This document shows, piece by piece, positions 619 through 19,930 of a DNA stretch of 64,000 bases. A program made the translations under genes and the position numbers. Every line of letters begins with the position of its first letter. Position 1 is the stretch's first letter. The notes under the pieces were generated by a model. That model saw only the letters and a list, made by a program, of their open reading frames with translations. It was not told the DNA's origin and did not search any database. Source of the stretch: Porticoccaceae bacterium. GTDB taxonomy: Bacteria; Pseudomonadota; Gammaproteobacteria; Pseudomonadales; Porticoccaceae. The stretch covers positions 25,114 to 89,113 of the forward strand of contig JBALVX010000001.1 in NCBI GenBank assembly GCA_036961295.1, in the 5' to 3' direction.

Positions 619-728
619 AACAAGTTTCCGTAACAGATAAGTTCTAAAAAAATTACGTTTACGAGCTTGTCGAACCCATCGGTAAAAACTTTGATAGTGA
701 GTTCAAGCCAGAGCTGACTCCCAAAGAA

Positions 729-1954: not shown

Positions 1955-2020
1955 CAATACGTTTAAATCGCTGCGCTCGGACAAGCAAAAAGCGGCTTGC
2001 CGTTTAACTCTGCGTTACGT
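1949..2020 (+). repeat. attC-like recombination site A (72 bp)
   Basis: R'' CCCTAAC (contains the TAA stop of the upstream ORF) - 5 nt - L'' GTTTAAA ... L' GTTTAAC - 5 nt - R' GTTACGT. L''/L' pair with one extra base in L''. The internal stem is cggacaagc/gcttgccg. Confidence 0.5.
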
Positions 2021-2040
2021 GTCATAAATCGGAGTATTAG

Positions 2041-2355
2041 ATGGCAGGAAAGTATCCGGATAGAATCAGAGCGCTACCACCTTATGATGGGCGTTTTGAC
2101 GCATACAAACTTGAAGCAAAAGAAGGCGATGTCCTTTTCGCATCATATCCTGCTGGCACATCCATTCCTCCCCATGTTCATGACACTGACAATCATGGTG
2201 TTATCACACGCGGTGAGTTGATATTGAGCATGAACGGCGAAGTAACTAAAGTAAGCGTGGGTGAGTGGTACCATGTTCCCGCAAATGTTGAGCACTCTGC
2301 CGAATTTGAAGTTGAAACAGATGAGGTTGAATTCTGGTTCCATGCAAACACTTAA
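2041..2355 (+). CDS. cupin domain protein
   Basis: 104 aa with GGAG RBS at 2031-2034. Cupin metal motifs PHVHDTDNHGV...EHSAEF. Stop TAA lies inside ACTTAAC (2350-2356), a perfect RYYYAAC box. Confidence 0.7.
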   Translation: MAGKYPDRIRALPPYDGRFDAYKLEAKEGDVLFASYPAGTSIPPHVHDTDNHGVITRGELILSMNGEVTKVSVGEWYHVPANVEHSAEFEVETDEVEFWFHANT

Positions 2356-2441
2356 CAAATCACTCCAATGGGGTTTATAGTTCCCACCATAATGAGGGTT
2401 GTAACAACCCTGAATTAAATTCACCTAATAGAGGATCAGTA

Positions 2442-4070: not shown

Positions 4071-4105
4071 GTTGAAGGGGTGTTGTATGCTTTTTAGGAT
4101 ATTGT

Positions 4106-4273
4106 ATGAATGCCGCACAATCTCTTGACGACTTGCGTTCCCCTCCTGGAAACAGGCTCGAACCATTAAAAGGTGAGCTCAAGGGTTTTCACAGCATTCG
4201 TATTAATTCCCAGTGGCGCATTATTTTCCGCTGGGCCGAAGGTGGTGCCACCAATGTCCAGATCGTGGACTAA
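4106..4273 (+). pseudogene. higB: HigB-type (COG3549 killer) toxin remnant, N-terminally truncated with premature TAA
   Basis: 55-codon ORF NAAQSLDDLRSPPGNRLEPLKGELKGFHSIRINSQWRIIFRWAEGGATNVQIVD* matches only the C-terminal ~60% of about 92-aa HigB toxins. The frame opens 6 codons after the BVMO stop. It ends GAC TAA CAC TAA where the family ends VDYH. Confidence 0.7.
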
Positions 4274-4295
4274 CACTAAAATTTAGAGGTGTCAT

Positions 4296-4586
4296 ATGAT
4301 TCCCTGCAATAGAACTGCAACGCATCCAGGGGTCATTTTGCTCAAAGAGTTTCTTGAGCCACTGGATTTAACGCAAAAGGCTTTGGCGGCACACGTCGGT
4401 GTTCCTGTGCAGCGAGTTAATGAAATTGTTCGCGGTAAACGCGGCTTTACGCCGGAAACTGCATGGCTGCTTTCCGAGGCGCTGCGTACAACTCCAGAGT
4501 TTTGGCTCAATCTTCAATCCATACATGATTTGTCGGCCAATCGTCCCGATAATCACATTGAGCTATTGATCGCAGCGGGCATGTAG
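4296..4586 (+). CDS. higA: HigA-family antitoxin (XRE HTH)
   Basis: 96 aa. HPGVILLKEFLEPLDLTQKALAAHVGVPVQRVNEIVRGKRGFTPETAWLLSEAL is a typical HigA HTH. Starts 22 nt after the higB remnant. Confidence 0.85.
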   Translation: MIPCNRTATHPGVILLKEFLEPLDLTQKALAAHVGVPVQRVNEIVRGKRGFTPETAWLLSEALRTTPEFWLNLQSIHDLSANRPDNHIELLIAAGM

Positions 4587-4728
4587 CAAGCGTGACGCCC
4601 TTGCTTGTTAAGGGGTTAGATAGAATCTGCGCCTAACATCAATCGGGCTGCCACGCAGAAAACTTGGTAGTGCAGGTTTGGGCCTCACTTTAGCGCTTTA
4701 TAAAAACAGATAAAACTGTGGAATATCG

Positions 4729-4821
4729 ATCTTACAAGCGCATTAAGTTCGTTCCGACGCTGCGCATCTCCACTAGACCCAGCCTGCTTCGCAGTTTGCG
4801 TTGTTTATGCGGACGTTAAAA
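4729..4821 (+). repeat. attC-like recombination site B (93 bp, degenerate R'')
   Basis: ATCTTAC - 5 nt - CATTAAG ... GTTTATG - 5 nt - GTTAAAA, the same 7-5-7 spacing as sites A and C. Shares TTAAGTTCG and ACGTTAAAA with site C. Confidence 0.4.
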
Positions 4822-4835
4822 CTCAAAATCGAAAT

Positions 4836-5051
4836 ATGCCTAAATCAATAAAGCTTTTTCTTTTCTGTTACTTTGCCTCTTTAGTTATTGGTTTGGTGGG
4901 CATGTTTGTTTCTGGCGCTGTAAAGAATTTAGTGGGTGGAACTGCAATTTATGTAGCTGTCACTCTATTAATAATGTTTGCTTCATTGTTTTTTTATCAC
5001 AAAGCAACATTCGTGGGCAAAATGGGTATACGTGATATTCGCTGGCTCTGA
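4836..5051 (+). CDS. small hydrophobic protein (2 TM), possibly the 5' part of a frameshifted gene
   Basis: 71-aa ORF in very AT-rich DNA. It overlaps ORF 4978..5217 in another frame. Together they would give an approximately 125-aa 3-TM protein. Confidence 0.3.
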   Translation: MPKSIKLFLFCYFASLVIGLVGMFVSGAVKNLVGGTAIYVAVTLLIMFASLFFYHKATFVGKMGIRDIRWL

Positions 5052-5217
5052 TGCTTTAAATAAAATATGGGTTCTATATTTTTTCGGGCAAAAGTCCTTT
5101 GTTTTGTCAACTATCATAGCGCTGCAATTTGTGCTTTTAGTTTATTCTATATTTTTATTGTTTTATAAAGACAGTTATATTTGGTTCAAGAAAGCGTGTG
5201 ATCAATGGAAGGTGTAA
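4978..5217 (+). CDS. small hydrophobic protein / 3' part of a frameshifted gene
   Basis: 79-aa ORF. Its stop TAA is embedded in the GTGTAAC R'' box of attC-like site C. Confidence 0.3.
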   Translation: MLHCFFITKQHSWAKWVYVIFAGSDALNKIWVLYFFGQKSFVLSTIIALQFVLLVYSIFLLFYKDSYIWFKKACDQWKV

Positions 5218-5278
5218 CAAGTTGCTTAAGTTCGGTCGCTTTGCCGTAGTTTGTCTGGCCCTTAGCGAAACGTTAAAA
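5212..5278 (+). repeat. attC-like recombination site C (67 bp)
   Basis: R'' GTGTAAC (contains the ORF stop) - AAGTT - L'' GCTTAAG ... L' CCTTAGC - GAAAC - R' GTTAAAA. L'' has one extra A relative to L' (extrahelical base). The spacers do not pair (UCS-like). Confidence 0.5.
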
Positions 5279-5325
5279 GAACCCACTATCTTATTAAAGC
5301 AACCCACTTAACCCCAAACCAATCC

Positions 5326-5661
5326 CTACTTTTTCTTCTCAGTCGATCGCAACAGGTTAGACAGCTTCGGATTCGGCTTGCTGGCTTTCCGCAATAGCAA
5401 TGCGATATGACCAATGGTCTGCACCAGTTGGGTCTTGCAGGTTTTGTTAAGTTGGGCCAGTAGCTTGCGGCGGTCGTCGCGATCAGCCACGGCTATTTTG
5501 ACTTTGATCAATTCGTGATCGTCGAGCGCGCGTTCCAGCTCTGCTAGCACGGTAGGGGAAAGCCCCTTGTCGGCGATGGTAACCGTAGGCTTTAGGTCGT
5601 GGCCGATGCGGCGCAGGTACTTCTTTTGCTCGTTACTGAGTGCGGTGGATGTTACAGTCAT
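5326..5661 (-). CDS. yhbY: ribosome assembly RNA-binding protein YhbY (CRM domain)
   Basis: 111 aa. LSNEQKKYLRRIGHDLKPTVTIADKGLSPTVLAELERALDDHELIKVK. Divergent from rlmE, as in E. coli. Confidence 0.85.
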   Translation of the reverse strand: MTVTSTALSNEQKKYLRRIGHDLKPTVTIADKGLSPTVLAELERALDDHELIKVKIAVADRDDRRKLLAQLNKTCKTQLVQTIGHIALLLRKASKPNPKLSNLLRSTEKKK

Positions 5662-5745
5662 GGGTGGTTCGGGCCGTTGGTCGGGGCGCGGGATTTTAAC
5701 AGAAATTGGGCTGGCGAGGCCCCTTGATAGAAAAGATAGGCGAGT

Positions 5746-6375
5746 ATGGGTAAATCGAAAAGCGGAAGTAGTCGGCGCTGGTTACAGGAGCACGAGGCTG
5801 ATCACTATGTACAAAAGGCGCGGAAGGACGGCTATCGCTCCCGTGCCAGCTATAAATTGCTGGAGCTGGATACGAAGAATCGCCTGTTAAAACCGGGAAT
5901 GACGGTGGTTGATCTGGGTGCTGCGCCCGGGGGCTGGTGTCAGGTAGCGGCTGAAAAAATTGGCTCGAAGGGGCGAATCATTGCCTGCGATATCTTGCCG
6001 ATGGATAACCTGGCGGATGTGGAAATACTGTGCGGTGATTTTACCGAAGAAGCGGTACTCGCCGAGCTTGAAACTATGGTCGGCGGCGCGCCCATTGACC
6101 TTGTAATGTCGGATCTGGCACCCAATGTAAGTGGGATAAAGGAAGTGGATCAGCCTCGGTCCATGTATTTAGTGGAGCTGGCGCTGGAGTTTGCGCGCCA
6201 GGTTTTGAGACCGGGCGGGGTGTTTGTGACGAAGGTTTTTCAGGGTGAGGGTTCCGATGCTCTGCTCAAAGAAGTTCGTCAAGGTTTTCAAAAGGTTACC
6301 ATTCGTAAGCCGGAAGCGTCGCGACCGCGATCCAGAGAGGTTTACTGGGTTGCCACAGGTTTTCGGGCAAAATAG
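5746..6375 (+). CDS. rlmE: 23S rRNA (uridine2552-2'-O)-methyltransferase RlmE/FtsJ
   Basis: 209 aa. [30 protein letters not shown] and SAM motif [13 protein letters not shown]. Confidence 0.95.
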
Positions 6376-6484
6376 CCCAGTTTTCGCGACGGAATAGCTG
6401 GCGCGGCAGAATTGAGCGGTCAAAACTGGTTATAATTGATATTCGTACCAAAACATTGGCGATGGCCAATTCGAGGATTTCAGG

Positions 6485-8440
6485 TTGAGTGAAGTAGCAA
6501 AGAATGTGATTCTCTGGCTGGTGATTGGCGCCGTGCTGTTTTCGGTGTTCCGGAATTTTCAGGAAGGGCCCGCACCGCAGAACATCACCTACACCAATTT
6601 TATTGATGAAGTGCAGAGTGGAAACGTTCGCAGTGTGCTAATTGACGAGTTGGTCATTCTGGGTGAGCGGGAAAATGGTGAGAAGTTTCGCTCCATCCGA
6701 CCCTATGCCAGCGATGACGGCATGATGAAGGACCTGCTCAATAACAACGTTAATATTTCCGGTAAAGAGCCGGACAAGGCCAGTTTTTGGCAGAGCCTGT
6801 TTTTGGCGATATTACCAATCCTATTGATTGTCGGCATTTTTGTGTTCTTTATGCGGCAAATGCAGGGCGGCGCGGGCGGTGGTCGAGGCGGCCCCATGTC
6901 CTTCGGTAAATCTAAAGCGCGCTTGCTCAGCGAAGATCAAATTAAAACTACTTTTGCCGATGTCGCCGGTGTCGATGAAGCCAAAGAAGAAGTTGGCGAG
7001 CTGGTGGAATTTCTGAGCGATCCTTCCAAGTTCCAAAGCCTGGGTGGTCGTATTCCCCGTGGCGTGTTGATGTCTGGCCCTCCGGGTACCGGTAAAACCT
7101 TGCTGGCCAAGGCGATTGCTGGCGAGGCGAAGGTGCCGTTCTTTTCTATCTCGGGTTCTGACTTTGTCGAAATGTTTGTCGGCGTGGGTGCGTCCCGCGT
7201 GCGCGATATGTTCGAGCAAGCTAAAAAACAAGCGCCCTGCATTATCTTTATTGATGAGATTGATGCGGTGGGCCGTACCCGCGGTGGCGGTATCGGCGGT
7301 GGTAATGACGAGCGCGAGCAAACGCTAAACCAATTGTTGGTTGAGATGGATGGCTTTGAGGGCAACGAAGGGGTGATTGTAATCGCCGCATCTAACCGCC
7401 CCGATGTGTTGGATAAAGCCTTGCTGCGCCCCGGACGTTTTGATCGCCAGGTCTATGTCGGCTTGCCGGACATTCGCGGTCGCGAACATATTCTTAAAGT
7501 TCACGCGCGCAAAGTGCCCCTGGACGAAGACGTTAAACTCAATGTGATTGCTCGCGGTACGCCGGGTTTCTCTGGTGCCGATCTTGCCAACTTGATCAAC
7601 GAGGCCGCGCTGTTTGCGGCGCGGTCCGATAAGCGTCTGGTCACCATGGAAGAGTTTGAGAAAGCCCGAGACAAAATCATGATGGGTGCCGAGCGCCGCT
7701 CCATGGTGATGTCCGAAGAAGAAAAAGCCAATACCGCCTATCACGAAGCGGGCCATGCCATTATTGGTCGTTTAGTGCCGGGCCACGATCCGGTGCATAA
7801 GGTCACTATTATTCCCCGTGGTCGCGCTCTGGGTGTTACCCAGTTCCTGCCCGAAGAAGATCAATACAGCATCAACAAACGACAACTGGAAGGCCAGATT
7901 TGCAGTTTGTTCGGGGGTCGAATCGCCGAGGAGTTAATACACGGTGCCGACGGCGTTACGACTGGTGCCTCTAACGATATTGAGCGCGCTAGTCAGTTGG
8001 CGCGGAGCATGGTAACCAAGTGGGGTTTGACCGAAAAACTCGGGCCCATCCTCTACGGTGAAGAGCAAACTATGGACCCTTCCGAGAGAGGCAGAAATTT
8101 CTCGGGAGAAACCTCCAAGCAAATCGATCACGAAGTACGCGGTATTATTGACCGCTGCTATCAGCGGGCGAATAAATTGCTCGAAGACAATATCGATATT
8201 TTGCACGCGATGAAAGCAGCGCTGATGGAATACGAAACCATCGATGCCGATCAAGTCAACGATTTGATGGAGCGGCGCACGGTGCGTCCGCCGCAAGGCT
8301 GGGACGACGATTTAGATCACCGCTCGGGTGGCAGCAAGCCCAAGGAAGCCGATGTTAGTGGCAATGTAGATGCGGACGTAAATACGGATGGAGATACGGA
8401 TAAGGAAAGCCCTATTGGCGGACCGGTCGAGGACAGCTAG
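6485..8440 (+). CDS. ftsH: ATP-dependent zinc metalloprotease FtsH
   Basis: 651 aa. Walker [12 protein letters not shown], zinc site HEAGHA. TTG start with GAGGA 8 nt upstream. Acidic C-terminal tail. Confidence 0.97.
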
Positions 8441-8483
8441 GTATAAAGGCTGGACATTTAGAGCGGCGTTTCGATTCCGAAAT

Positions 8484-8524
8484 AAAGCCGGTTGACCCTA
8501 AGGGTTGGCTGGCTTTATTGTTTT
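8484..8524 (+). terminator. rho-independent terminator after ftsH
   Basis: aaagcc...ggcttt stem enclosing accc/gggt, followed by attgtttt. Confidence 0.55.
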
Positions 8525-8580
8525 AAGTGGGAGCTAGAACTGATAAATAAAAATGGAATTTTCAGATTCGGTTTTTTGAG

Positions 8581-8641
8581 TCCCTTAATTTTAAGTTAAT
8601 TAGTTTTAAGTCCATTAGTTTTTAAGTGAATGAGTTTTTAA
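8581..8641. repeat. tandem repeat, 4 x 15-16 bp (..ttagttttaag)
   Basis: Units are tcccttaattttaag / ttaattagttttaag / tccattagtttttaag / tgaatgagtttttaa. The array ends 4 nt before the folP ATG. Confidence 0.8.
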
Positions 8642-8645
8642 TTTT

Positions 8646-9488
8646 ATGTCGATGATCGACTTTTCGCAGCGACCCGTCCACGGTCGCCCCCGGGTGATGG
8701 GGGTACTCAATATCACGCCGGATTCGTTTTCCGACGGCGGCACTCTGTTTGTCAATAATGCGCTCAACCTCGATGAAACTTTGCGTCGCGCTGAAACCCT
8801 GGTGAGCGAAGAGGCGGATTTGTTGGACGTCGGTGGCGAATCAACGCGACCCGGCGCGGAACAGGTTAGTGAAGCGCAAGAGCTGGATCGAGTGATGCCG
8901 GTGATTGAAGCGTTGATGTCTCGGTTTGATGTGCCGGTGTCAATTGACAGCAGTAATCCGCTGGTTATTTCCAGCGCAGTCGCGGCAGGTGCGGGACTGG
9001 TTAATGACGTGCGTGCACTGGTTCGTCCCGGAGCTTTGGATGCGGCGCGCGATAGTGGCGCGCCAATTTCTTTAATGCATATGCAGGGCCAGCCGGGCAC
9101 TATGCAGGACGCGCCGGTTTATCAAGATGTGGTGGCCGAGGTGCTGGCATTTTTACTGGAGCGCGTGCGCGTTTGCGTTGCAGCGGGCATCCCAAAACAA
9201 CGACTAATGATTGACCCCGGCTTTGGGTTTGGCAAGGAACTCGCGCATAATGCGGCTTTATTGCAGGCGCTACCGGAGTTTGTTGCCCAGGGCTTCCCGG
9301 TGTTGGTGGGGCTGTCCCGCAAGCGCATGGTCGGCGAGATAACGGGTCGCCCGGTTAACGAGCGTGTTTGCGGCAGCGTGGCCCTGGCAATGTTGGCGGC
9401 CCAGCGCGGGGCGTCAATAATACGAGTCCACGATGTTGGCGCCACCGTCGATGCCCTCAAAACACTGGCGGTGATTGAGCCTGCTTAA
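8646..9488 (+). CDS. folP: dihydropteroate synthase
   Basis: 280 aa. VMGVLNITPDSFSDGG...DVGGESTRPGA...IDPGFGFGK. Confidence 0.95.
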   Translation: MSMIDFSQRPVHGRPRVMGVLNITPDSFSDGGTLFVNNALNLDETLRRAETLVSEEADLLDVGGESTRPGAEQVSEAQELDRVMPVIEALMSRFDVPVSIDSSNPLVISSAVAAGAGLVNDVRALVRPGALDAARDSGAPISLMHMQGQPGTMQDAPVYQDVVAEVLAFLLERVRVCVAAGIPKQRLMIDPGFGFGKELAHNAALLQALPEFVAQGFPVLVGLSRKRMVGEITGRPVNERVCGSVALAMLAAQRGASIIRVHDVGATVDALKTLAVIEPA

Positions 9489-9529
9489 GTTAACAAAGCG
9501 AAATGTCGCAAGTGCGACAGATATAGATA

Positions 9530-9593
9530 AAGCGCGATATAAATAAAGCACGATATAAATAAAGCACGATATAAATAAAGCACGATATAAATT
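9530..9593. repeat. tandem repeat, 4 x 16 bp (aagcacgatataaata)
   Basis: Four head-to-tail copies (first aagcGcgatataaata, last ...aaatt). The array ends 6 nt before ATG 9600 of glmM. Confidence 0.9.
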
Positions 9594-9599
9594 AGATAG

Positions 9600-10952
9600 A
9601 TGACGAGCATTATGACAAAACGTTTTTTTGGTACCGATGGTATTCGCGGCACGGTTGGCGAGTATCCCATTACTGCAGATTTCATCCTTAAGCTGGGTTG
9701 GGCCGCAGGCAAAGTATTTGGCGGGAAAAGTGACGAGCGCCAACAGATCCTGGTGGGCAAAGATACTCGGGTCTCCGGTTATATGTTTGAGTCCGCCCTG
9801 GAAGCGGGAATTATTGCCGCAGGTGTCGATGTCGGTTTATTGGGTCCCATGCCGACTCCAGCTATTTCTTATCTGACGCAAACCTTCCGCGCCCAGGCGG
9901 GCATCGTGATTAGCGCTTCGCACAATCCGTTTGCGGATAACGGCATCAAATTTTTTGGCGCCGACGGTTATAAATTGCCGGACAGTGTCGAGCACGAAAT
10001 CGAAAGCTATCTTGACGAGGACATTAGAACGATGGCCTCTAGCCAGTTGGGAAGAGCTAGCCGGGTGGTCGATGCCGCTGGGCGTTATGTCGAATTTTGT
10101 AAGGGTACCTTGCCCCCGGGTTTTAGCTTGAAGGGCATCAAACTGGTTCTCGATTGCGCCAACGGTGCGACCTATCACGTGGCGCCGAATGTGCTTCGGG
10201 AATTAGGTGCGCAGGTGGAAACCATCGGCGTTGACCCCGACGGGTTTAACATCAATCGCGACTGCGGCTCCACCAGTCCTGAGGCGTTGCAGCAGGCAGT
10301 GCTTGAGCAGGGAGCAGACCTGGGCATTGCAATGGATGGCGATGGCGATCGGGTTGCCTTTGTCGATCATACCGGTGCGCTGGTTGATGGCGACGAATTG
10401 CTGTACATAATTGCTGCTCACCGGCATAACAATGGTGGCTGTAGTGGTGTTGCCGGTACCCTGATGAGCAATTACGGTCTCGAAACGGCCCTTGGCGAGT
10501 TGAACATACCCTTCGTGCGTACCGCCGTGGGTGACCGCTATGTGATTGAAGCCATGCGCGAACATCAGTGGGATCTCGGCGGTGAAAATTCCGGTCATCT
10601 GATTTGCGGCGACATCACCACTACTGGGGATGGCATTGTTGCTGCCTTACAGGTGCTGCGGGTGATGGTCGACACTAGTGATCGGCTCTATGACTTGCGC
10701 TCGGGGATGACTAAGCTGCCCCAAACGATGATTAACGTCAAAATCAAAAAGCGTGTGGTACTTGAAGACGATCCGGCCGTGTGCGCGGCCCTCAAGCACG
10801 CAGAGGAAGCCCTGGTGGGCCGGGGTCGAGTGCTATTGCGTCCCTCCGGCACCGAACCGGTGGTGCGGGTGATGATAGAAGGCGAAGATATAAAACAGGT
10901 CGAGCAGTTGGCCCGTGAAGTTGCCGCCGTCGTCGAGCTAGCCGTCGCGTGA
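9600..10952 (+). CDS. glmM: phosphoglucosamine mutase
   Basis: 450 aa. FGTDGIRG, phosphoserine loop SASHNP, MDGDGDR. An alternative ATG lies at 9612. Confidence 0.95.
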
Positions 10953-11048
10953 ACACCCTGTGGAAGGCCCAAATCGCATTGTATGTCGGTGTTAAGTCCG
11001 TTATTATTGCGCCCCTTTTTGGGCTGGTGACAATGCGTATCCTAGTTA

Positions 11049-11822
11049 ATGCGTAGCCTGGTGGTAGGCAACTGGAAAATGAACGGTTCGCGCCGTTCCA
11101 GTATTCAGTTGTGCGAAGACATTGTTGAGGGCCTGGCTGAAGCTGAAGTAGCTGGGGAAATAGCTCAGCAAGCAGATCGAATAGAAACGGTGGTTTGTCC
11201 GCCCTTTGTATACCTTGCCGACGCCACAGATATTATGGCGCGGACGGAAAGTAGTTTGAGCCTTGGTGCGCAAACCTTAAGCGAAAACAACAACGGTGCG
11301 TTTACCGGTGAAGTGTCGGCGGCCATGTTGGTCGAACTCGCTTGTCGCTACGTGCTAGTCGGGCATTCCGAACGCCGCAGTATTTTCGGCGAAAGCAGTG
11401 CGCAGGTGGCGGATAAGTTTTGCGTAGCACTGACGGCGGGCCTGGTGCCCGTGTTGTGTGTTGGCGAGAGCCAAAGCCAGCGCGATGCCGGCGAGACCTT
11501 CGCGGTTATCGACGAGCAGCTTGATGCGGTCGTCGCCGCAGTTGGTGTCGATACGCTGAGTAGCGCAGTCATTGCCTACGAACCTGTATGGGCGATAGGC
11601 ACTGGCAATACCGCAAGCCCGGCGCAGGCGCAGGCGGTACATGCCCATATTAGAGCCCGCCTGGGTGAGGCTGGTAGCGAAACACGATTATTGTACGGCG
11701 GTAGCGTCAACGCGGATAATGCCGCAGAGCTGTTTGCCGAAGTGGATATTAATGGCGCCCTGGTGGGTGGGGCATCATTAGATGCCGGACAATTTATAGC
11801 TATTTGTAAAGCGGCTACATGA
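11049..11822 (+). CDS. tpiA: triose-phosphate isomerase
   Basis: 257 aa. VVGNWKMNG, VGHSERR, AYEPVWAIGTG. Confidence 0.95.
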   Translation: MRSLVVGNWKMNGSRRSSIQLCEDIVEGLAEAEVAGEIAQQADRIETVVCPPFVYLADATDIMARTESSLSLGAQTLSENNNGAFTGEVSAAMLVELACRYVLVGHSERRSIFGESSAQVADKFCVALTAGLVPVLCVGESQSQRDAGETFAVIDEQLDAVVAAVGVDTLSSAVIAYEPVWAIGTGNTASPAQAQAVHAHIRARLGEAGSETRLLYGGSVNADNAAELFAEVDINGALVGGASLDAGQFIAICKAAT

Positions 11823-11846
11823 CATTGATGGGGTAGTGGAAAACTG

Positions 11847-12251
11847 ATGGAAAATTTAATACTAGCGGCACACATAGTGATCGGTTTAACGATCATCGTT
11901 TTTGTGTTGCTACAGCAAGGCAAAGGTGCCGAAGCCGGTGCCTCTTTTGGAGCTGGAGCGTCGCAAACCTTATTTGGCAGTGTCGGCACCTGGAACTTTT
12001 TCAGCAAAGTTACTGCCTTCCTGGCTCTGGGCTTCTTTATCACCAGTTTTACACTGGCTGTGCTAGCCAGTAAAAATACCGGCGTCGATAGCCAATTGCT
12101 ACCCGAGCTAGAAATTCTGCAAGAGATACCTGGTCTCGATGTATCTGCGTTAGAAGTACCTGATCTTGAAGATTCAGGCCTCGATGATATTAATACCGAC
12201 ATTAATACCGATATTGATTCGGTAGATCAACAACTGCCGTCGCAACCGTAA
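11847..12251 (+). CDS. secG: preprotein translocase subunit SecG (extended acidic C-terminus)
   Basis: 134 aa. LLQQGKGAEAGASFGAGASQTLFGS. C-terminal DDINTDINTDID tail. Confidence 0.9.
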   Translation: MENLILAAHIVIGLTIIVFVLLQQGKGAEAGASFGAGASQTLFGSVGTWNFFSKVTAFLALGFFITSFTLAVLASKNTGVDSQLLPELEILQEIPGLDVSALEVPDLEDSGLDDINTDINTDIDSVDQQLPSQP

Positions 12252-12260
12252 AACGTCGTG

Positions 12261-12358
12261 ATGACTATGGTTAAATGACTATGGTTAAATGACTATGGTT
12301 AAATGATTGTGGTTAAATAACTCTCGTTAAATAACTCTCGTTAAATGATTATGATTAA
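12261..12358. repeat. tandem repeat, 7 x 14 bp, abutting the tRNA-Leu gene
   Basis: Units are 3x atgactatggttaa, atgattgtggttaa, 2x ataactctcgttaa and atgattatgattaa, then a partial atgtatgtat running into tRNA nt 1 (12369). Confidence 0.9.
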
Positions 12359-12368
12359 ATGTATGTAT

Positions 12369-12453
12369 GCCCAAGTGGTGGAATTGGTAGACACGCTATC
12401 TTGAGGGGGTAGTGGCGCAAGCCGTGCCGGTTCAAGTCCGGCTTTGGGCACCA
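12369..12453 (+). tRNA. tRNA-Leu (anticodon GAG)
   Basis: GCCCAAG...CTTGGGCACCA acceptor, anticodon loop TTGAGGG, long variable arm, TTCAAGT T-loop, encoded CCA. Position after secG matches E. coli leuU. Confidence 0.95.
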
Positions 12454-12482
12454 TGTTAAAGACCAGCACCCTCTGCTGGCGA
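12440..12482. repeat. attL: 43-bp direct repeat (last 14 nt of tRNA-Leu plus 29 nt downstream)
   Basis: ggctttgggcaccatgttaaagaccagcaccctctgctggcga is identical to 19281-19323. Confidence 0.9.
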
Positions 12483-12489
12483 CTAAGAA

Positions 12490-12515
12490 GCTCCGCAATG
12501 CGGGGCTTTTTTTTT
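12490..12515 (+). terminator. rho-independent terminator (island-borne) after tRNA-Leu
   Basis: gctccgc aat gcggggc followed by a 9-T run. Confidence 0.75.
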
Positions 12516-12564
12516 ACTTTTTAGTCTGGCTACGTCCTCTACTATCCATTGCTATCTGCCCTTA

Positions 12565-12617
12565 TTGGGGGGTATATTGGGGGTACAAATTGATATGATG
12601 ATAAAAAATACCCCCAA
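12565..12617. promoter_or_regulatory. putative integrase arm-type sites (TTGGGGGTA x2 direct, x1 inverted)
   Basis: ttggggggta (12565-74), ttgggggta (12577-85) and inverted tacccccaa (12609-17) overlapping the int ATG. The same motif recurs at 19197-19217. Confidence 0.5.
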
Positions 12618-13843
12618 TGGCCACCAATAAACTAACCATTCCAGCCGTAAAGAATGCCAAGCCGAGCGAGAAGCAATGGAAGCTGAGCGATGGTGGTGGT
12701 CTCTATCTTTTGATTCAGCCTAAGGGTGGTAAGTACTGGCGTTTGAAATATCGCTATCAGGGCAAAGAAAAGGTTTTAGCGCTTGGGGTATACCCTGAGA
12801 CCACACTTGCTTTGGCGAGAGAAGGTAGGGATAGAGCTAGAGTTTTGTTAGGGAATGGCACTGATCCCAGCCTTGTGCGGAAACAGCGAAAGCGCGCTGG
12901 TAGGATCAATTCTGAAAATACCTTTGAAGCATTGGCTCTCGACTGGATCGAACAGCAGCGGGGCAGATGGTCAATAGGCCATACCGAACGTGTTATCCAG
13001 TCACTCGAAAGTGATGTTTTCCCCCATATCGGATATCGCGCAATTTCTGAACTGACACCTCCCGACATACTGGAAGTTGTTCGCAAAGTTGAAAGCCGTG
13101 ATGCTCTGGATGTAGCGGGGCGCATTTTACAGCGCTGCGGTGCGATCTTTCGCTATGCCGTGCAAACGGGTAGGGCGCAGACGAACCCCGCCTCAGAGCT
13201 AAAGGGGGTGCTAAAAACCCGCAAAGTTGAGCACAGGGCCGCTATTACCCGCGCCGAGCTTCCACAGTTACTTAGAGACGTAGCGACCTATGAAGGCTAT
13301 CTGATTACGCGCCTTGCGCTCAAGTTGCTGATACTTACCTTTGTACGCCCTGGTGAGCTTCGCTTTGCCCGATGGGATGAATTCGACCTTGAAGCGCGCG
13401 TATGGCGTATTCCCGGTGAGCGCATGAAAATGAAGACCGAACACTTAGTACCCTTGTCGCGGCAAGCCATCGATTTATTGGAACAATTGAAACCGATCAC
13501 TGGGCATTATGATTTATTGTTTTCAGGTGAGCGCGGTCAGCTCAAACCCATATCCGAAAACACCATGACCTATGCCCTGTACCGCATGGGCTACAAGAGT
13601 CGGGCCACCGCCCATGGTTTCAGAACCACCGCGTCGTCTATTCTTAATGAAGAAGGCTTCAACCCAGATGCTATCGAACGGCAGCTCTCCCATCTTGAGC
13701 GCAATCAGGTGAGGGGCGCTTACACAAAGCATGCGGAGTACCTGAAAGACCGAACTAGGATGATGCAATGGTGGGCTGACTATTTGGATCAACTGGAGAC
13801 CGGCTCTAATGTGGTGCCGGGCAAGTTTGGGGCAAGTAACTAA
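12617..13843 (+). CDS. int: tyrosine-type site-specific integrase (P4-like, DUF4102 arm-binding N-terminus)
   Basis: 408 aa. LSDGGGLYLLIQPKGGKYWRLKYRYQGKEKVLALGVYP N-domain. Catalytic RPGELR...HGFRTTASS...GAY. Confidence 0.95.
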   Translation: MATNKLTIPAVKNAKPSEKQWKLSDGGGLYLLIQPKGGKYWRLKYRYQGKEKVLALGVYPETTLALAREGRDRARVLLGNGTDPSLVRKQRKRAGRINSENTFEALALDWIEQQRGRWSIGHTERVIQSLESDVFPHIGYRAISELTPPDILEVVRKVESRDALDVAGRILQRCGAIFRYAVQTGRAQTNPASELKGVLKTRKVEHRAAITRAELPQLLRDVATYEGYLITRLALKLLILTFVRPGELRFARWDEFDLEARVWRIPGERMKMKTEHLVPLSRQAIDLLEQLKPITGHYDLLFSGERGQLKPISENTMTYALYRMGYKSRATAHGFRTTASSILNEEGFNPDAIERQLSHLERNQVRGAYTKHAEYLKDRTRMMQWWADYLDQLETGSNVVPGKFGASN

Positions 13844-13942: not shown

Positions 13943-14716
13943 GTGAATAATGATGATAGTGGTGAGCGCGATGATGTTTTTATTTTCATACGGAAGCCAA
14001 AGAATAGTAGGTCAGAGCAAACTTTCGATACTAAGCAAGACCTGGCCGACTTCCTGTCAAATGAAAACCTATTCGTCTCATTTGACGAACTTGTTGAAGA
14101 ACACGGCTTGGCGTTGTCAATACAGCTGACGAGTGCGGTTTGTCAATTTAATGAAGACGGCGACGTACTCTCAGCGATCGACGTGATGACCCTTTGCAAA
14201 GTAATGGATTTATACCCGCCAACGGGCGTCATGAATTGGGTATCCCAAGCTTTCTGGGACTTTATGAAGGATGATTCTCAGGCAGAAACGGGTCGGATCG
14301 ATCAAGGAAAGCAATACACAGGTGATATGAATAAACTTCTGGGGATCACGGGCCCAGGCAAACCAATCAATAGCGCTCGAAGAAAGCACAGAAATAAATA
14401 CCTTTACGTCATCATGGGGAATGTGATCCGTGTTTTCGGCGTCAGCGCACACGCTGCGGCAAAGCTGATTTATCAAAGAGAAATGTTTATCGGCACTTGG
14501 CGCTCTTGTGTGGGACTCCCCGATCCATCCTCAATTGAAAGAGCTTACAGCCAATTAAACCCCAAGCCGCACGAAGAGGGTCTATCGCTTGGTTATCGCT
14601 ACCCAGAGAGCCGAGAACACCTGAAAGAGTTTGCGGAGTCCTTTGATGTTCCTGATGCTGATCGTACGGTTATTCAGGCGCTTATGCAGAAAGTTGATTT
14701 ACTTTTTCCGGAATAG
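13943..14716 (+). CDS. hypothetical protein (island)
   Basis: 257-aa ORF with a GTG start. No motif recognised. The first in-frame ATG is about 80 codons in. Confidence 0.45.
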   Translation: MNNDDSGERDDVFIFIRKPKNSRSEQTFDTKQDLADFLSNENLFVSFDELVEEHGLALSIQLTSAVCQFNEDGDVLSAIDVMTLCKVMDLYPPTGVMNWVSQAFWDFMKDDSQAETGRIDQGKQYTGDMNKLLGITGPGKPINSARRKHRNKYLYVIMGNVIRVFGVSAHAAAKLIYQREMFIGTWRSCVGLPDPSSIERAYSQLNPKPHEEGLSLGYRYPESREHLKEFAESFDVPDADRTVIQALMQKVDLLFPE

Positions 14717-14803
14717 AACCAAGGCCTCCTCTTGATTCGATGGAGTCCAGTTTAGGGCTGTCAGATGATTGCTGTTGTCAACTATCGCCAAAGGAGGCAA
14801 AGC

Positions 14804-15058
14804 ATGACTAACAGCAACCGTTCCCCCACTCCCAATACCATACCTTCAAATGACCGAATCTTACGCTGGCCAGAAGTTCATCAGCGTGTAGGTATTTGTC
14901 GCTCTCATGCTCACCAGTTAGTAGCGCAAGGTGAATTCCCCGAGCCAATTAAATTAGGGCCACGTGCCTCTGGTTGGCTCGAATCGGAAATAAATGAATG
15001 GCTCGTACGACGTGTGGCCGAATCTCGCACCGATCAGCTACGCAAAGCGGGGAGCTAA
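14804..15058 (+). CDS. alpA: AlpA-family transcriptional regulator / excisionase-like HTH
   Basis: AGGAGG RBS. ILRWPEVHQRVGICRSHAHQLVAQGEFPEPIKLGPRASGWLESEINEWL is the AlpA signature. Confidence 0.85.
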   Translation: MTNSNRSPTPNTIPSNDRILRWPEVHQRVGICRSHAHQLVAQGEFPEPIKLGPRASGWLESEINEWLVRRVAESRTDQLRKAGS

Positions 15059-15061
15059 ATC

Positions 15062-15526
15062 ATGAAGACACAAAAAAGCCCGGTGACAGCCGGGCAATTC
15101 CGTAACAAATCAACCAATATGCTCAGCAGCAACCAGTTGAATCAGAGTGATTGTAGCTTAAGGATTGGCGGGGGTGGTAGTCCTAGGCCTCGTAGGAGGG
15201 AAACTAAATACGAGCGATCTTGTATCTTGATGATTTCCACCCCAGGGGGTGTGACTGAAAACGATATATTGCGAGCGTGTCGCTTATCTAGTGGGCGTAA
15301 TTACCCGAATAAACTGGAGAAGGAAGCTGGGATTATTATGGGGCGCGCACGTGAACTAAATCCTGACGGCATAGGCTCACATTTCCGTTACAGGATTCGT
15401 TCTGCAAATGACGCACAGCAGGCGATTAAGGTAGTCAACAAACTGAGCATAAGGCGCGGCGCTGGGCCGCTTACCGATGAGCAGGTGAGACGTTTACTGG
15501 CTTTATATAATACCGACGACGAATGA
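15062..15526 (+). CDS. hypothetical protein (island)
   Basis: 154 aa. Starts 3 nt after the alpA stop, with a GGGGAG RBS. No motif recognised. Confidence 0.5.
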   Translation: MKTQKSPVTAGQFRNKSTNMLSSNQLNQSDCSLRIGGGGSPRPRRRETKYERSCILMISTPGGVTENDILRACRLSSGRNYPNKLEKEAGIIMGRARELNPDGIGSHFRYRIRSANDAQQAIKVVNKLSIRRGAGPLTDEQVRRLLALYNTDDE

Positions 15527-15527
15527 A

Positions 15528-15917
15528 ATGGGCGCGGTAAAGAAGTCCAAGAGCCCGCGCTTTATAGGAATCCCACAGCACGTTGCTCATAGCGAAGAGT
15601 TTGCTGCCTTAAAGGGCAATGAAGTAAAACTGTTGATTGATTTGTTAGTGCAATACTATGGCCGGAACAACGGGAAGCTTTCGCCTACTTTAGCTTTGAT
15701 GAAAAAACGGGGGTGGGCTTCTTCATCACTCTACCGGGCTCACACTGGACTTTTAAAAAAAGGCTTTGTCGTAGTAACTCGCCAGGGTTGGAAACAGCGA
15801 GGTCGCCCCACGCTGGTAGCAATCACCTGGAATAGGATTGATGAATGTGACATTGACTATGACGAAGGTATTAGATCCAGCGCAACACCACTTAATAGTT
15901 GGCGCAAGAAACAATGA
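15528..15917 (+). CDS. putative winged-helix DNA-binding protein (possible Rep/regulator of the island)
   Basis: 129 aa. Starts 1 nt after the previous stop. FIGIPQHVAHSEEFAALKGNEVKLLIDLLVQYYGRNNGKLSP...LLKKGFVVVTRQG resembles wHTH proteins of small mobile elements. Confidence 0.45.
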   Translation: MGAVKKSKSPRFIGIPQHVAHSEEFAALKGNEVKLLIDLLVQYYGRNNGKLSPTLALMKKRGWASSSLYRAHTGLLKKGFVVVTRQGWKQRGRPTLVAITWNRIDECDIDYDEGIRSSATPLNSWRKKQ

Positions 15918-16146: not shown

Positions 16147-16515
16147 CTACGGATCGGAGTTTAGCGCAGCGGCAATAATTGTCTCATTACTGATGCCAGG
16201 AGGCGCAGAGACGTAAAGGCTTATCTCAGCTATCCACCGGAATCCAAGGTGAGCAATGGCGCGTTCATTGGCGGGGGTGAACCGTTCCCCGCCGTCGGGC
16301 TTGATGGTGTTCAGTTGCTGCGGCGCGTGTCCAGGCCTGTAGTCTTGTAGGTAAATTACGTTGCTCATGGTGCGTTGCTCCTGCGGTGTTTCGGTAAAGG
16401 CTTTGCGGAGGCGCGTTTGTAGGGCTTCTGGCCAGCTATCGAGGCTGACTGTCATTGTATCGCGCAGCTTTATGAGGTGGCGACTACCGGTAGGTGTGGG
16501 CGCTAGAATGGGCAA
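16147..16515 (-). CDS. hypothetical protein (island), start uncertain
   Basis: 122-aa ORF from TTG 16515. ATG 16455 is an alternative. ATG 16368 is the only candidate with a good AGGAG RBS (giving 73 aa). Confidence 0.4.
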   Translation of the reverse strand: MPILAPTPTGSRHLIKLRDTMTVSLDSWPEALQTRLRKAFTETPQEQRTMSNVIYLQDYRPGHAPQQLNTIKPDGGERFTPANERAIAHLGFRWIAEISLYVSAPPGISNETIIAAALNSDP

Positions 16516-16643: not shown

Positions 16644-16831
16644 GGTGAAGTGCTTGTCGTTTAAATGGTCAGGTGTCGGTTTTTGCTGTTTTGACCGTGA
16701 AATTGCTGAGCGGTCTGAGTTAGGGGGTAAATGCTCCTGTTATTCACAATAGGCAGACCAAAGTCCAACCATGTGGAGCTGGCCTCTACCTCAATGTTAC
16801 TGATACTCCTGGGAACGTTGCTGGCCCACGA

Positions 16832-16885
16832 GTGTCAGATATAGTGTCAGATATTGTTGACAGTCTGATTGTGGGGAGTTAATCT
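16832..16885 (+). promoter_or_regulatory. candidate sigma70 promoter with an upstream direct-repeat operator for the 3-gene operon
   Basis: GTGTCAGATAT at 16832-42 and 16844-54. -35 TTGACA at 16857-62, 17-nt spacer, -10 TAATCT at 16880-85, 24 nt before ATG 16910. Confidence 0.45.
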
Positions 16886-16909: not shown

Positions 16910-17776
16910 ATGACGCGACGATTAAAAATCGCACCACTGATCTTCGTTCAGGTGGAAATGACATGGTCACCACTTCCAGACCCAAATGTACTTAATGTAG
17001 ACGAGCTTACTCAATTTCATCGCGCTCTGCAGAAGCTGGGGTTTTCTCAGAAGCAGGAATTAGAGTTCACTTGGCAGGAGCTATCTTTATCCGGTGCTGA
17101 TAGCGCCCTAAAATCTAGGAGCCAAATCAGACATATTTTTTCGAACCCGGAAAGGGACTGTCAAGTAGAGATAACCAGAGAGAAAGTATCCATAAAGCAA
17201 AGCCGGTATGCAGGGTTTGAAGCATTGTTTACTTTGGCTAAGGACGTGATTTCGTTATTGGAGGCTGTCGAGGATATTCGCAATACTGGAGTTGGTGTTG
17301 TATCAATTCATTATGTTGATTTATTTATACCTAGCAAAGGGCGTCAACTTGAGGAATATGTTAGCTCGCAGTTGATTCCTTTCTCTCCAGCACTAAGCAA
17401 TATTCTAGCGAAACAGAGAACCGCATCTTCAGTTATACTCTTGGAAAAGAGTGACGCTAAGATACGGGATATAGCTGTTAGGCTAAATATCTATCAAGCA
17501 GATGGGGGCAAGATGCCAATCTTTGTCCCCGTTGAGCTGCAAGAGCAGCAGCAGGAAGCTGCTATGCGTTTATTTCTACCTGAAATTGATTTTGATGAAA
17601 ATGTTGAATATGGCCTGATGGATATTAGGCATGCTAGTAAATTTGTGAAACAAGAAAAATTTGGTGATGTTAACAAAGGCGAGGAGCTTAGATCGCTATA
17701 CCAAATAGCAAGTAATGTTTTTTGGGATATATTATCTGAACCAGCGAAGGAGGAGTGGGGTTATTCCGATGAATAA
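16910..17776 (+). CDS. uncharacterised protein, possibly TIGR04255-like (cargo gene A)
   Basis: 288 aa. N-terminal APLIFVQVEMTW and central VVSIHYVDLF recall the TIGR04255 pattern (from memory, unverified). No TM segment or catalytic motif seen. Confidence 0.6.
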   Translation: MTRRLKIAPLIFVQVEMTWSPLPDPNVLNVDELTQFHRALQKLGFSQKQELEFTWQELSLSGADSALKSRSQIRHIFSNPERDCQVEITREKVSIKQSRYAGFEALFTLAKDVISLLEAVEDIRNTGVGVVSIHYVDLFIPSKGRQLEEYVSSQLIPFSPALSNILAKQRTASSVILLEKSDAKIRDIAVRLNIYQADGGKMPIFVPVELQEQQQEAAMRLFLPEIDFDENVEYGLMDIRHASKFVKQEKFGDVNKGEELRSLYQIASNVFWDILSEPAKEEWGYSDE

Positions 17777-18374
17777 TGGAGCGTCAACGGCAACAAGAAG
17801 TCTTGAGTCTCACACAAGGTTAGTGTTGTTGCCTGTGCATAAAACTACGGTCGCTAAGGACGTAAGCTGGCCCTCGCGTCCAGAAAGCGACGACGGCTAC
17901 GGCTTTAAGTTAGTTGTCCTCGGCTTTTCTGCAAACCCTACAAATGGGGTTGTGGGCATTAGCCCACAACAATTAGAAGACGAGAATGTATGCGATAGAG
18001 TCATTGAATTAGATCGCTCTTTAAATCTGCCTAGAAAGTTACTGGCGGAAGCTCTCCAAATATCGAGGACAACGCTATACGATCTTCTTAACGGGGCTAA
18101 TCGAGAGTATAGAAATGAGGCTAGACTGAATAAGATGGAGTACGCAGCATCAATTATTCGCAAATCAACTGATTACCCAATTGGACGTAGTGCGATTGCG
18201 GTAAAGATTGATGGCAGTTCGTTGTCCGACGTATTGAAAGCAGATGATATTAGCTCTTCGGCTGTTGAGCAATTCGCAGTAGCAATTAACGCTATTAAAG
18301 AGAGAGAACGACTTGCCGAAGAGGATATATCGTCCAAAAATGAGCAGTATGCTCAAACGCAATTCACGGGATAG
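17769..18374 (+). CDS. HTH-containing protein (cargo gene B)
   Basis: ATG overlaps the gene A stop by 8 nt (GATGAATAA). AAGGAGGAG lies upstream. XRE-like HTH LPRKLLAEALQISRTTLYDLLNG mid-protein. Confidence 0.6.
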   Translation: MNNGASTATRSLESHTRLVLLPVHKTTVAKDVSWPSRPESDDGYGFKLVVLGFSANPTNGVVGISPQQLEDENVCDRVIELDRSLNLPRKLLAEALQISRTTLYDLLNGANREYRNEARLNKMEYAASIIRKSTDYPIGRSAIAVKIDGSSLSDVLKADDISSSAVEQFAVAINAIKERERLAEEDISSKNEQYAQTQFTG

Positions 18375-18379
18375 CATGC

Positions 18380-19189
18380 ATGAGTGCAGAAGTAGAATGG
18401 ACTCAGGGCAGCTACTTCAAATTTAGTCACCTATCTGAAGAAACTAAAGCTCAATTTAAAGAAGGTATCCCAGGGCAAGGCAGAATTCGGGGAACTTCCT
18501 TAATTGTAGTAATCTCACAAGATTGTGATATTCAGGCTTCGAGCGGCGTCGAGTTTTATGTTCAGCTGATGGTGGCAGAGCGGGTGAATTCTACCCCTCC
18601 GTTAAATTATCACGCTAGATCATCGCGTTTTCTTGCGCTTGACATAGGCGGGGCCATATTCAAGCTCAAAGCCTTAAAGATTTGCTTCTTTCCGAAAGAG
18701 GCTTTTTTCGAGTGCAAAGAATCTTCTCAAAATAGGGGCGAGTTTGATTTTGAGCAAAAGGAATTGCTGAGACGTTGGTTAGCACAACGCTATAACAGAG
18801 CCGCTTTACCAGACAGCTTTAACAGACGAATTTCGGGTGTAATAGATCTGTTGCCAAATCAAAAGGTGGATTTGTACTTAAGATTAGATAGTGAAGTCGA
18901 GAATGAAGACTGCTACGCCGTAGCGATTATTGCGGTCCCATACAAGGGAGCAAATATTGATGCTAAGGGGCAAGTAGAATTGTTCAAAGATATGGAGTTG
19001 CTAGAGATTGCCATAAACAATCAAGGGGGGTTAACTTTTGATAGAGACTGGTTAGACGAAAAGTATTACACATTGGTTATGACCCGCTCTGATACGCCGC
19101 TAGAGGTGTTGGACGAATTTAAAAGATGGAATTTAGACTATATATCCTACAAAGATGATGATTATGGAGTCGGACAAAATGAAGACTAG
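18380..19189 (+). CDS. uncharacterised protein (cargo gene C)
   Basis: 269 aa. Starts 5 nt after the gene B stop. LIVVISQDCDI motif and acidic C-terminus. No family recognised. Confidence 0.6.
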   Translation: MSAEVEWTQGSYFKFSHLSEETKAQFKEGIPGQGRIRGTSLIVVISQDCDIQASSGVEFYVQLMVAERVNSTPPLNYHARSSRFLALDIGGAIFKLKALKICFFPKEAFFECKESSQNRGEFDFEQKELLRRWLAQRYNRAALPDSFNRRISGVIDLLPNQKVDLYLRLDSEVENEDCYAVAIIAVPYKGANIDAKGQVELFKDMELLEIAINNQGGLTFDRDWLDEKYYTLVMTRSDTPLEVLDEFKRWNLDYISYKDDDYGVGQNED

Positions 19190-19280: not shown

Positions 19281-19323
19281 GGCTTTGGGCACCATGTTAA
19301 AGACCAGCACCCTCTGCTGGCGA
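19281..19323. repeat. attR: 43-bp direct repeat (displaced tRNA-Leu 3' end)
   Basis: Identical to 12440-12482. Flanking bases differ on both sides. Confidence 0.9.
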
Positions 19324-19330
19324 TAAAAAA

Positions 19331-19352
19331 CCCGCGTAGCAGCGGGTTTTTT
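19331..19352 (+). terminator. rho-independent terminator (original tRNA-Leu terminator)
   Basis: cccgc gtagca gcggg followed by ttttttg. Confidence 0.7.
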
Positions 19353-19474: not shown

Positions 19475-19930
19475 ATGAAACTCAAACCCTTGCTCACTAT
19501 GCACGCTGACCTTAAGCCGCCCGTCGACGTCGGTCCCGGTCCCTACGGCAACCGCATGATTTTTGATGTCATCGGTGGCACTTTCACCGGCGATAAACTG
19601 CGCGGTACTTTGCTGCCCAGTGGCGGCGACTGGATATTAATTGACGAGCGGGGCGTCGGTAAGCTCGATGTGAGAATTACTCTCCAGACCGAGGATGGCG
19701 CGCTACTCTACGTGCAATATCACGGCGTGCTGGCCATGAACGAAGCCGTTAACGTAGCGGTGGGCGGTGGTGAACCCATGGACTTTGGCGATACCTACTT
19801 TATGACGCAGCCGCGCGTGGAAACCGGGGATGAGCGCTACCGTTGGCTCAACGATATTGTCGCGGTCGCCGAAGGTCGGGTAGTCGATCACGCGGTTGAA
19901 TATAAGGTGTACGAGTTGGTTAATGATTAA
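19475..19930 (+). CDS. DUF3237 (UPF0311) family protein
   Basis: 151 aa. GPGPYGNRMIFDVIGGTFTGDKLRGTLLPSGGDWILIDERGVGKLDVR. Confidence 0.7.
   Translation: MKLKPLLTMHADLKPPVDVGPGPYGNRMIFDVIGGTFTGDKLRGTLLPSGGDWILIDERGVGKLDVRITLQTEDGALLYVQYHGVLAMNEAVNVAVGGGEPMDFGDTYFMTQPRVETGDERYRWLNDIVAVAEGRVVDHAVEYKVYELVND

Follow-up and report, generated by a model that had tools for sequence, protein, structure and literature searches.

A Widely Distributed Three-Gene Cassette with a TIGR04255 Protein Is a Candidate Toxin–Antitoxin-like Anti-phage Module

A Porticoccaceae genome, metagenome-assembled to judge from the database names of identical proteins, carries a three-gene cassette, A-B-C, on the attR side of a 6.9-kb island at tRNA-Leu. 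The island lies within the window analyzed here, a 64,000-nt stretch of contig JBALVX010000001.1 (assembly GCA_036961295.1, positions 25,114 to 89,113); positions below refer to this window and its + strand unless a locus or strand is named. Gene A (16910–17776, 288 aa) encodes a TIGR04255-family protein, gene B (17769–18374, 201 aa, ATG start) an Xre-type helix-turn-helix (HTH) protein, and gene C (18380–19189, 269 aa) a member of an unnamed family whose predicted fold offers a toxin-like lead. We propose, with a probability of about 0.5, that A-B-C may be a self-repressed, toxin–antitoxin-like anti-phage module acting through abortive infection or inter-element competition. A first-pass annotation of the same DNA had read the genes as a candidate defense or addiction module; our comparative evidence supports that interpretation and makes the cassette a strong candidate, its function still being a candidate one.

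The three open reading frames (ORFs) stand where the first-pass annotation had placed them and form one tightly packed operon. The ATG of B overlaps the TAA stop of A by 8 nt, within GATGAATAA, and C begins 5 nt past the TAG of B, the same overlap and gap that had been described before. An alternative in-frame start of B at 17715 would yield a 219-aa protein; the start at 17769 is favored because of homologues such as that of locus L001 (197 aa), which has the identical 8-nt overlap. This packing recurs elsewhere: of 83 non-redundant loci, 82 have A and B overlapping or no more than 27 nt apart, and 75 have a gap between B and C within the same limit.

Gene order is equally well maintained. 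Loci were sorted with hidden Markov models (HMMs) built for A, B, and C and applied to 158 sources, 118 of which contain an intact A-B-C on one strand and in the same order; 32 others are cut by contig ends. Among the approximately 125 loci with enough DNA to judge, the order is kept in those 118, with about five real exceptions: decayed copies (L071, L073, and L106), a locus that lacks A (L152), and L053. In L053, an unrecognized 247-aa ORF (1604–2347, − strand) takes the place of A upstream of B and C and would be a replacement of A or a highly divergent version of it. That homologues of A, B, and C occur together in essentially every judgeable locus answers the synteny check that the first-pass annotation had named beforehand.

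The same arrangement emerged irrespective of the gene from which a locus was reached. All contigs with C homologues display a trio of ~285, ~210, and ~295 aa, and in contigs reached from A homologues, A and B precede a C that is full-length, truncated, or frameshifted. Another 14 loci were contributed by a genome scan, from Porticoccus, Ketobacter, Marinobacter, Colwellia, Alteromonas, Ectothiorhodospira, Wenzhouxiangella, Burkholderiales, Balneolaceae, and Thermoanaerobaculia; four came from a viral scan, and at least 120 more from scanning metagenomes with back-translated C motifs. As a reverse search, tblastn of the Klebsiella A against plasmids returned 12 records, all annotated as TIGR04255, and each of the nine that were checked carries B and C beside A. 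These records include Meiothermus (Deinococcota), Chroococcidiopsis (Cyanobacteria), Mesorhizobium, and Acinetobacter baumannii. Over all loci, the known range of the cassette extends from Proteobacteria as far as Cyanobacteria, Deinococcota, and Acidobacteriota. The Klebsiella copy was not found in the phage collection by DNA search, nor was the cassette found there by protein search with C; a DNA search of complete Escherichia coli genomes did not find it either.

The three proteins diverge in step: their pairwise identity matrices correlate strongly (Mantel r 0.88–0.92, p = 0.001) at median identities of 19–24%, and r is still 0.63–0.80 among pairs below 40% identity. Synteny, tight packing, and co-divergence together indicate that the trio has been inherited and exchanged as one unit over a very long time. 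Judged from these comparisons, the cassette is a large, old, and widespread family and not a rarity of this island, with the window copy as a divergent member.

Protein A is a bona fide member of TIGR04255, as the resemblance noticed at first pass had suggested. It scores 69 bits against the NCBIfam model ('sporadTIGR04255'; cut-off 30, E = 5.5e-19) over model positions 2–252 of 252, a full-length match. All 64 of 64 non-redundant cassette A proteins match the same model (best E = 2.9e-48), and the Prokaryotic Genome Annotation Pipeline (PGAP) likewise assigns the plasmid copies to TIGR04255. The AlphaFold model of A has a predicted local distance difference test score (pLDDT) of 82.5 and a predicted template modeling score (pTM) of 0.82, and depicts a duplicated sandwich with two tandem β-α-β4-α halves. 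Charged and aromatic residues that are invariant or nearly so include R134, Y135, D137, D238, and H241. In the Foldseek comparison with the Protein Data Bank (PDB), PII/GlnK and TBP structures match halves of A only, and Foldseek against BFVD gave unnamed proteins only. A single-sequence search of the PDB with A found nothing, and the A-family profile found nothing meaningful there. A word-indexed homologue search with window A returned A itself alone, and its relatives were reached through the cassette-partner profile; tblastn of window A against plasmids gave no match, as the window copy is too divergent. Literature searches for TIGR04255, CHP04255, and IPR026349 found no paper mentioning the family.

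The first-pass annotation could not place protein C in any family, and this held: the window copy has no match in Pfam (E ≤ 0.1), NCBIfam, PHROG, or PADLOC. The family itself is large, as an exhaustive profile search recovered 2,241 cluster representatives at E ≤ 1e-3, 1,606 of them at E ≤ 1e-10. No meaningful Pfam match was found among 150 members, and RefSeq names the plasmid copies 'hypothetical protein'. The family is recognizable by the motifs SQDCDI, W-x-A-x-RY-x-R-x-A-[LF]-PD-x-FN, and DY(I/L)S, and by nearly invariant Q9, C49, D50, E62, R83, W133, R137, Y138, R140, P144, F147, E174, Y179, D253, and S256. Searches of the PDB found nothing with C alone and nothing meaningful with the family profile. 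The structural model of C is of moderate quality (pLDDT 67, pTM 0.58); its top Foldseek matches in the PDB are CcdB (4elz, 3tcj, 2vub) and MazF (4mzt, 5co7), at probabilities of 0.92–0.99 and target template modeling (TM) scores of 0.55–0.64 over ~130 aligned columns covering the N-terminal ~130 residues. We treat a CcdB/MazF-like fold in the N-terminal half of C as a tentative, model-based lead and not as membership.

Across loci, decay is commoner in C than in A or B. In L014 (9507–9908), and also in L015 and L016, C consists of the C-terminal domain only (133 aa, HMM positions 170–290), yet its start still overlaps B as it usually does, and neither A nor B is damaged; on the structural model, the CcdB/MazF-like half seems to have been cleanly lost. 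C is frameshifted in L018 and present as fragments in L071, L073, and L106. Along with the tight packing and the conserved operator-like repeat described below, this pattern, in which C decays most often and A and B stay intact, is an indirect sign of a type II toxin-antitoxin system and lends weak extra support to the proposed module.

The Xre-like HTH attributed to B at first pass is clear at the family level but weak in the window copy. Of 84 non-redundant B partners, 35 match Pfam HTH_3 (best E = 7.8e-9) and 10 match the antitoxin-type Xre-like-HTH PF20432, while window B scores below threshold for both HTH_3 (16.8 bits, cut-off 23) and HTH_31 (17.7 bits, cut-off 27). Searching the PDB with the B-family profile matched Xre/MbcA/ParS-like, HigA-like, and HipB proteins (including 8qnl, 3cec, and 6fkg); a single-sequence search with window B gave weak matches only (E ≥ 0.02). 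Two residues of the HTH, R100 and Y104, are nearly invariant. Assigning the C-terminal part of B to the toxin-binding domain DUF2384 was considered and found unsupported, DUF2384 not being among the families listed for B. From these features, B is probably an autorepressor and a candidate antitoxin. In L145, the longest B-matching ORF (10173–11219, 348 aa) overlaps the 3′ part of A (10712–11581) by ~500 nt in another frame, and the true B of that locus is probably shorter on account of this overlap.

A putative binding site for B lies immediately upstream of A. In the window, two tandem 12-nt direct repeats (AGTGTCAGATAT twice, 16831–16854) directly precede the TTGACA hexamer of a candidate promoter (16857–16885). 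The first-pass annotation had described direct repeats flanking this promoter; both units instead lie upstream of the −35 hexamer. The variant AGTGTCAGATAT is common to the window and its Porticoccus relative L019, and the corresponding family-wide tandem repeat (GTGTAAAGT) with a 12-nt period occurs just upstream of A in 57 of 87 non-redundant loci. The test took the 200 nt upstream of A and counted TGTAAA pairs whose two cores together deviate at no more than one position, and control windows from the same loci gave only 6 of 6,875 at that period. Other spacings of the pair (periods of 8–11 nt) were found in one or two loci each. The consensus of the unit is aaGTGTAAAGTn, in which positions not used for selection are conserved as well (T in 81% and G in 62% of units), and the median distance from the end of the second unit to the longest-ORF start of A is 23 nt. 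The motif is recognizable from Meiothermus to Klebsiella and, by the control-window test, occurs only in front of the cassette itself. The 12-nt-period repeat is probably the operator of B. A ToxI-like RNA antitoxin was rejected as an explanation of the repeats, which are too short and are located before A.

The genomic contexts of the cassette are mobile and diverse. P4-integrase islands carry it in the window and in L001/L020, which also have a Prim-Pol gene, and further copies adjoin other integrases. A Tn7-like element carries the cassette next to an Xre-RES pair. Conjugative plasmid hosts span MOBH, MOBF, MOBQ, and MOBP; one plasmid copy sits in a region rich in insertion sequences, and another copy at the end of a Klebsiella prophage. 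In P2, the slot between Phage_GPA and portal/terminase is the classical old/tin slot. In L035, a P2-like prophage from IMG/VR (4270–13599), the cassette has Dam and GpA on one side and portal and terminase on the other; L036, likewise a P2-like prophage from IMG/VR (888–6286), shows the same cassette-portal-terminase layout on the downstream side. This gpA-gpQ slot has been defined as a P2 hotspot of anti-phage systems (Rousset et al. 2022, PMC9122126).

Defense or toxin-antitoxin neighbors of the cassette include a type III restriction-modification system with a UvrD-like helicase, a TOTE primase-helicase, IrrE/M78, and a Zeta-like ATPase. Others are Mrr-nSTAND3, FRG, TacAT, RelB/YafQ and HigBA-like pairs, and VapBC. 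Among the loci examined, placement in variable cargo slots next to known defense genes is therefore a recurrent feature. The first-pass annotation had asked whether homologues sit in mobile or defense islands, and the answer is favorable to it: they lie in mobile elements and in defense or toxin-antitoxin neighborhoods, the P2 gpA-gpQ hotspot included. In one lineage, an Mrr_cat-nSTAND3 NTPase (~655–771 aa) follows the cassette (L002, 8956–11271; also L003–L011). It was considered as a fourth component and rejected as a neighbor only, since L017, the window, and most other loci lack it.

How such a module might work can be outlined from these observations. B would bind the tandem GTGTAAAGT-type repeats, which in the window abut the −35 hexamer, and thereby repress the operon. 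The effector would be C, which would poison or cleave a nucleic-acid-linked target by means of its CcdB/MazF-like N-terminal domain and of invariant Asp, Cys, Glu, Arg, and Tyr residues. B, which is synthesized immediately before C and whose translation is often coupled to that of C, would also neutralize C in the manner of Xre-type antitoxins. A, always the first gene, would complete the trio as a sensor or adaptor, linking a trigger (e.g., a phage product) to the release of C. Either A or C may be the toxic part, with C as the candidate effector. The addiction or toxin idea of the first-pass annotation gains tentative support from the CcdB/MazF-like fold in C and the Xre-antitoxin-like features of B.

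Several results weigh against this proposal. The resemblance of C to CcdB and MazF is weak, with Foldseek E-values of 0.02–0.1 on a model of pLDDT 67. None of the 150 C members matches Pfam CcdB (PF01845) or PemK_toxin (PF02452) at E ≤ 0.01, and hhalign of the C family with F-plasmid CcdB and E. coli MazF gave probabilities below 1%. For A, the best PDB match by Foldseek is an AdoMetDC prozyme at E = 1e-4 and a TM-score of only 0.27, a value that led us to drop A as an AdoMetDC-type enzyme; with no confident structural relative, the role given to A is a guess. The repeat core in the window is TGTCAG and that of the family TGTAAA, and the usual targets of HTH dimers are inverted and not direct repeats. 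The promoter proposed at first pass is present as two hexamers (TTGACA, 16857–16862; TAATCT, 16880–16885) with a 17-nt spacer, and its −35 element is perfect, but the −10 element agrees with TATAAT at only three of six positions and a consensus promoter scan listed no + strand promoter at 16857–16885. A minority of loci lie beside core genes, namely rpoD-dnaG (L029) and pgi-zwf (L043). Finally, PADLOC-DB 2.0.0 HMMs matched none of window A, B, and C (E ≤ 0.1), and the term 'defense' rests on guilt by association because no PADLOC model matches. With the same database, the Klebsiella, Pseudomonas putida, and A. baumannii copies gave only a generic helix-turn-helix match. In favor of the first-pass interpretation, on the other hand, A, B, and C match no metabolic or structural family and no known defense model.

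Much of what suggests a toxin–antitoxin-like defense module would also fit a pure addiction module, in which post-segregational killing stabilizes islands, plasmids, and prophages and no anti-phage role exists. This is the main rival and, in our estimate, an improbable one overall. The operon logic is that of a toxin-antitoxin system, with an Xre-type B followed by a C of toxin-like fold; the cassette is present on plasmids and integrative elements, and classical toxin-antitoxin pairs often adjoin it. Placement argues the other way, as the occupied P2 gpA-gpQ hotspot typically holds anti-phage cargo and the neighbors include restriction-modification, TOTE, and nSTAND genes. Classical addiction modules also need just two genes and would not account for a third that is strictly conserved. 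Addiction and defense cannot be told apart by sequence alone, and the two roles are not mutually exclusive.

Two further explanations are less likely than addiction. The unlikeliest is that the cassette regulates the life cycle of its mobile hosts, with B as the element repressor and A and C as accessories to excision, transfer, superinfection immunity, or helper exploitation. B as a DNA-binding protein with a conserved cognate repeat would suit such a role, as would an island that has an integrase and AlpA and, by family scans, no recognizable replication or transfer genes. The carriers are, however, unrelated (P2-like prophage, Tn7-like transposon, MOBH/MOBF/MOBQ/MOBP plasmids, and tRNA islands), the cassette is always at accessory and not core regulatory positions, and the repeat is confined to its front. 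We give only a slightly better chance to an accessory enzymatic or stress-response function outside conflict, in which B would serve as the dedicated regulator of two enzymes, A and C. This explanation could account for the invariant polar residues of A (R134, Y135, D137, D238, and H241) and of C (D48, C49, D50, E62, R83, R137, Y138, and R140), draws on the AdoMetDC-type sandwich as the best PDB match of A, and would accommodate the few loci among core or polysaccharide genes. It sits poorly with a sporadic, horizontally mobile distribution, a G+C content atypical for the host genome, the lack of any conserved metabolic neighbor, and the lack of an enzyme family matched by sequence or confident structure.

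The proposed defense module is a cassette of a known kind, namely small toxin-antitoxin or defense-type cargo, built from parts without characterized relatives. The closest organizational parallels are the tripartite toxin-antitoxin-chaperone (TAC) systems, represented by HigBA-SecB TAC of Mycobacterium tuberculosis (PMC9098466) and the anti-phage CmdTAC (PMC11618068). The cassette shares with them three co-transcribed small genes, a toxin-like part with a neutralizer and a possible sensor, and defense contexts. No component is homologous, however: C is neither an ADP-ribosyltransferase nor HigB, and SecB is not among the 50 best PDB Foldseek matches of A, which is modeled as a duplicated β-α-β4-α sandwich. 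Moreover, the third gene comes first in the cassette, and the neutralizing and chaperone roles are here only proposed. With Xre-type type II systems (Xre-RES, ParST, MbcTA, HigBA, and HipBA/HipBST), the cassette has in common an Xre-type HTH in B, the position of B directly before and often overlapping the putative effector gene, and an operator-like repeat at the promoter. It differs in that C is not RES, ParT, MbcT, HigB, or HipA, and in the obligatory extra gene A.

The likeness to CcdB/MazF (Kid/PemK) toxins lies in the predicted fold of C residues ~1–130 and, by our own reading, in a strand-loop-strand pattern around SQDCDI that by eye recalls VDVQSDIID of CcdB. The differences are the absence of a sequence match, a length of ~270 aa with an extra C-terminal domain of ~125 aa, and invariant motifs of its own. 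ToxIN-like type III systems have a ~36-nt RNA repeat array upstream of a Kid/MazF-like endoribonuclease gene, whereas the cassette has two 12-nt units before A and not a ~36-nt array before C. L035 resembles the gpA-gpQ cargo of P2 (old, tin, and the systems of Rousset et al.) in that its cassette lies exactly between Phage_GPA and portal/terminase; the window copy, unlike that cargo, sits on a small P4-integrase tRNA island and not in a P2 phage. The term TIGR04255 is absent from the text and supplements of PMC9122126, and the cassette is not among the systems listed or tested there. A search of the literature on 'CcdB-like' with 'anti-phage' and 'helix-turn-helix' found no paper on such a system.

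A more ambitious version of our proposal, to which we assign somewhat less than even odds, is that TIGR04255, the Xre-HTH protein, and the C family constitute an unrecognized phylum-spanning anti-phage system. A would then contribute a new sensor fold, C a CcdB/MazF-derived two-domain effector, and the 12-nt-period operator would set the expression level via B. If true, this would provide the first function for TIGR04255, so far a 'sporadically distributed' family without one. The family is made testable by its constant place as the first gene of a fixed trio, by the operator-like repeat, and by mobile carriers in immune-gene slots. The operon is small (2.3 kb plus promoter) and clonable, and could give a function to TIGR04255 and to ~2,000 'hypothetical' protein clusters. 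Culturable hosts of the cassette include Klebsiella pneumoniae, A. baumannii, P. putida, Vibrio furnissii, and Marinobacter. Should the cassette prove to be a defense or toxin-antitoxin system, it would offer a new effector architecture together with a new sensor or adaptor fold, and thousands of 'hypothetical protein' genes could be annotated.

The island that carries the window copy is framed by two perfect copies of a 43-nt direct repeat. Its integration target is tRNA-Leu(GAG) (12369–12453, ARAGORN), and attL (12440–12482, found by repeat search) comprises the final 14 nt of the tRNA and 29 nt downstream. The second copy, attR, lies at 19281–19323, which places the end of C 91 nt before it. 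A P4-type tyrosine integrase (12617–13843; Pfam Arm-DNA-bind_3, Phage_int_M, and Phage_integrase) stands at the opposite end, in agreement with the first-pass description of integrase-distal cargo beside attR. It is followed by an AlpA-family excisionase or regulator (14765–15058; Pfam Phage_AlpA, E = 3e-17). The four remaining island ORFs (13943–14716, 15062–15526, 15528–15917, and 16147–16515 on the − strand) have no Pfam, NCBIfam, PHROG, or PADLOC match, except for a very weak Sta1-like match of a 129-aa ORF. Past attR, a hairpin (ACCCGC-GTAGCA-GCGGGT followed by a T run, 19330–19352) was read from the sequence and has no listing in the scan; it is the displaced terminator of the tRNA and the sole terminator-like element downstream of C. 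The G+C content over 17–19 kb is 0.43, compared with 0.50–0.54 in the flanks, in line with the AT-richness relative to the core that had been estimated by hand at first pass.

Other stretches of low G+C in the window (1–2000, 54001–55000, 59001–61000, and 62001–64000; 0.39–0.47 vs ~0.50–0.55) may be acquired segments. Upstream of the island, a 14-nt unit (ATGACTATGGTTAA, with variants) is repeated seven times in tandem (12247–12380) and fills the spacer between a SecG-like ORF (11847–12251) and tRNA-Leu. Directly past attR lies a DUF3237 gene (19475–19930, E = 4e-48), followed by tRNA-Met and the rimP-nusA-infB core operon.

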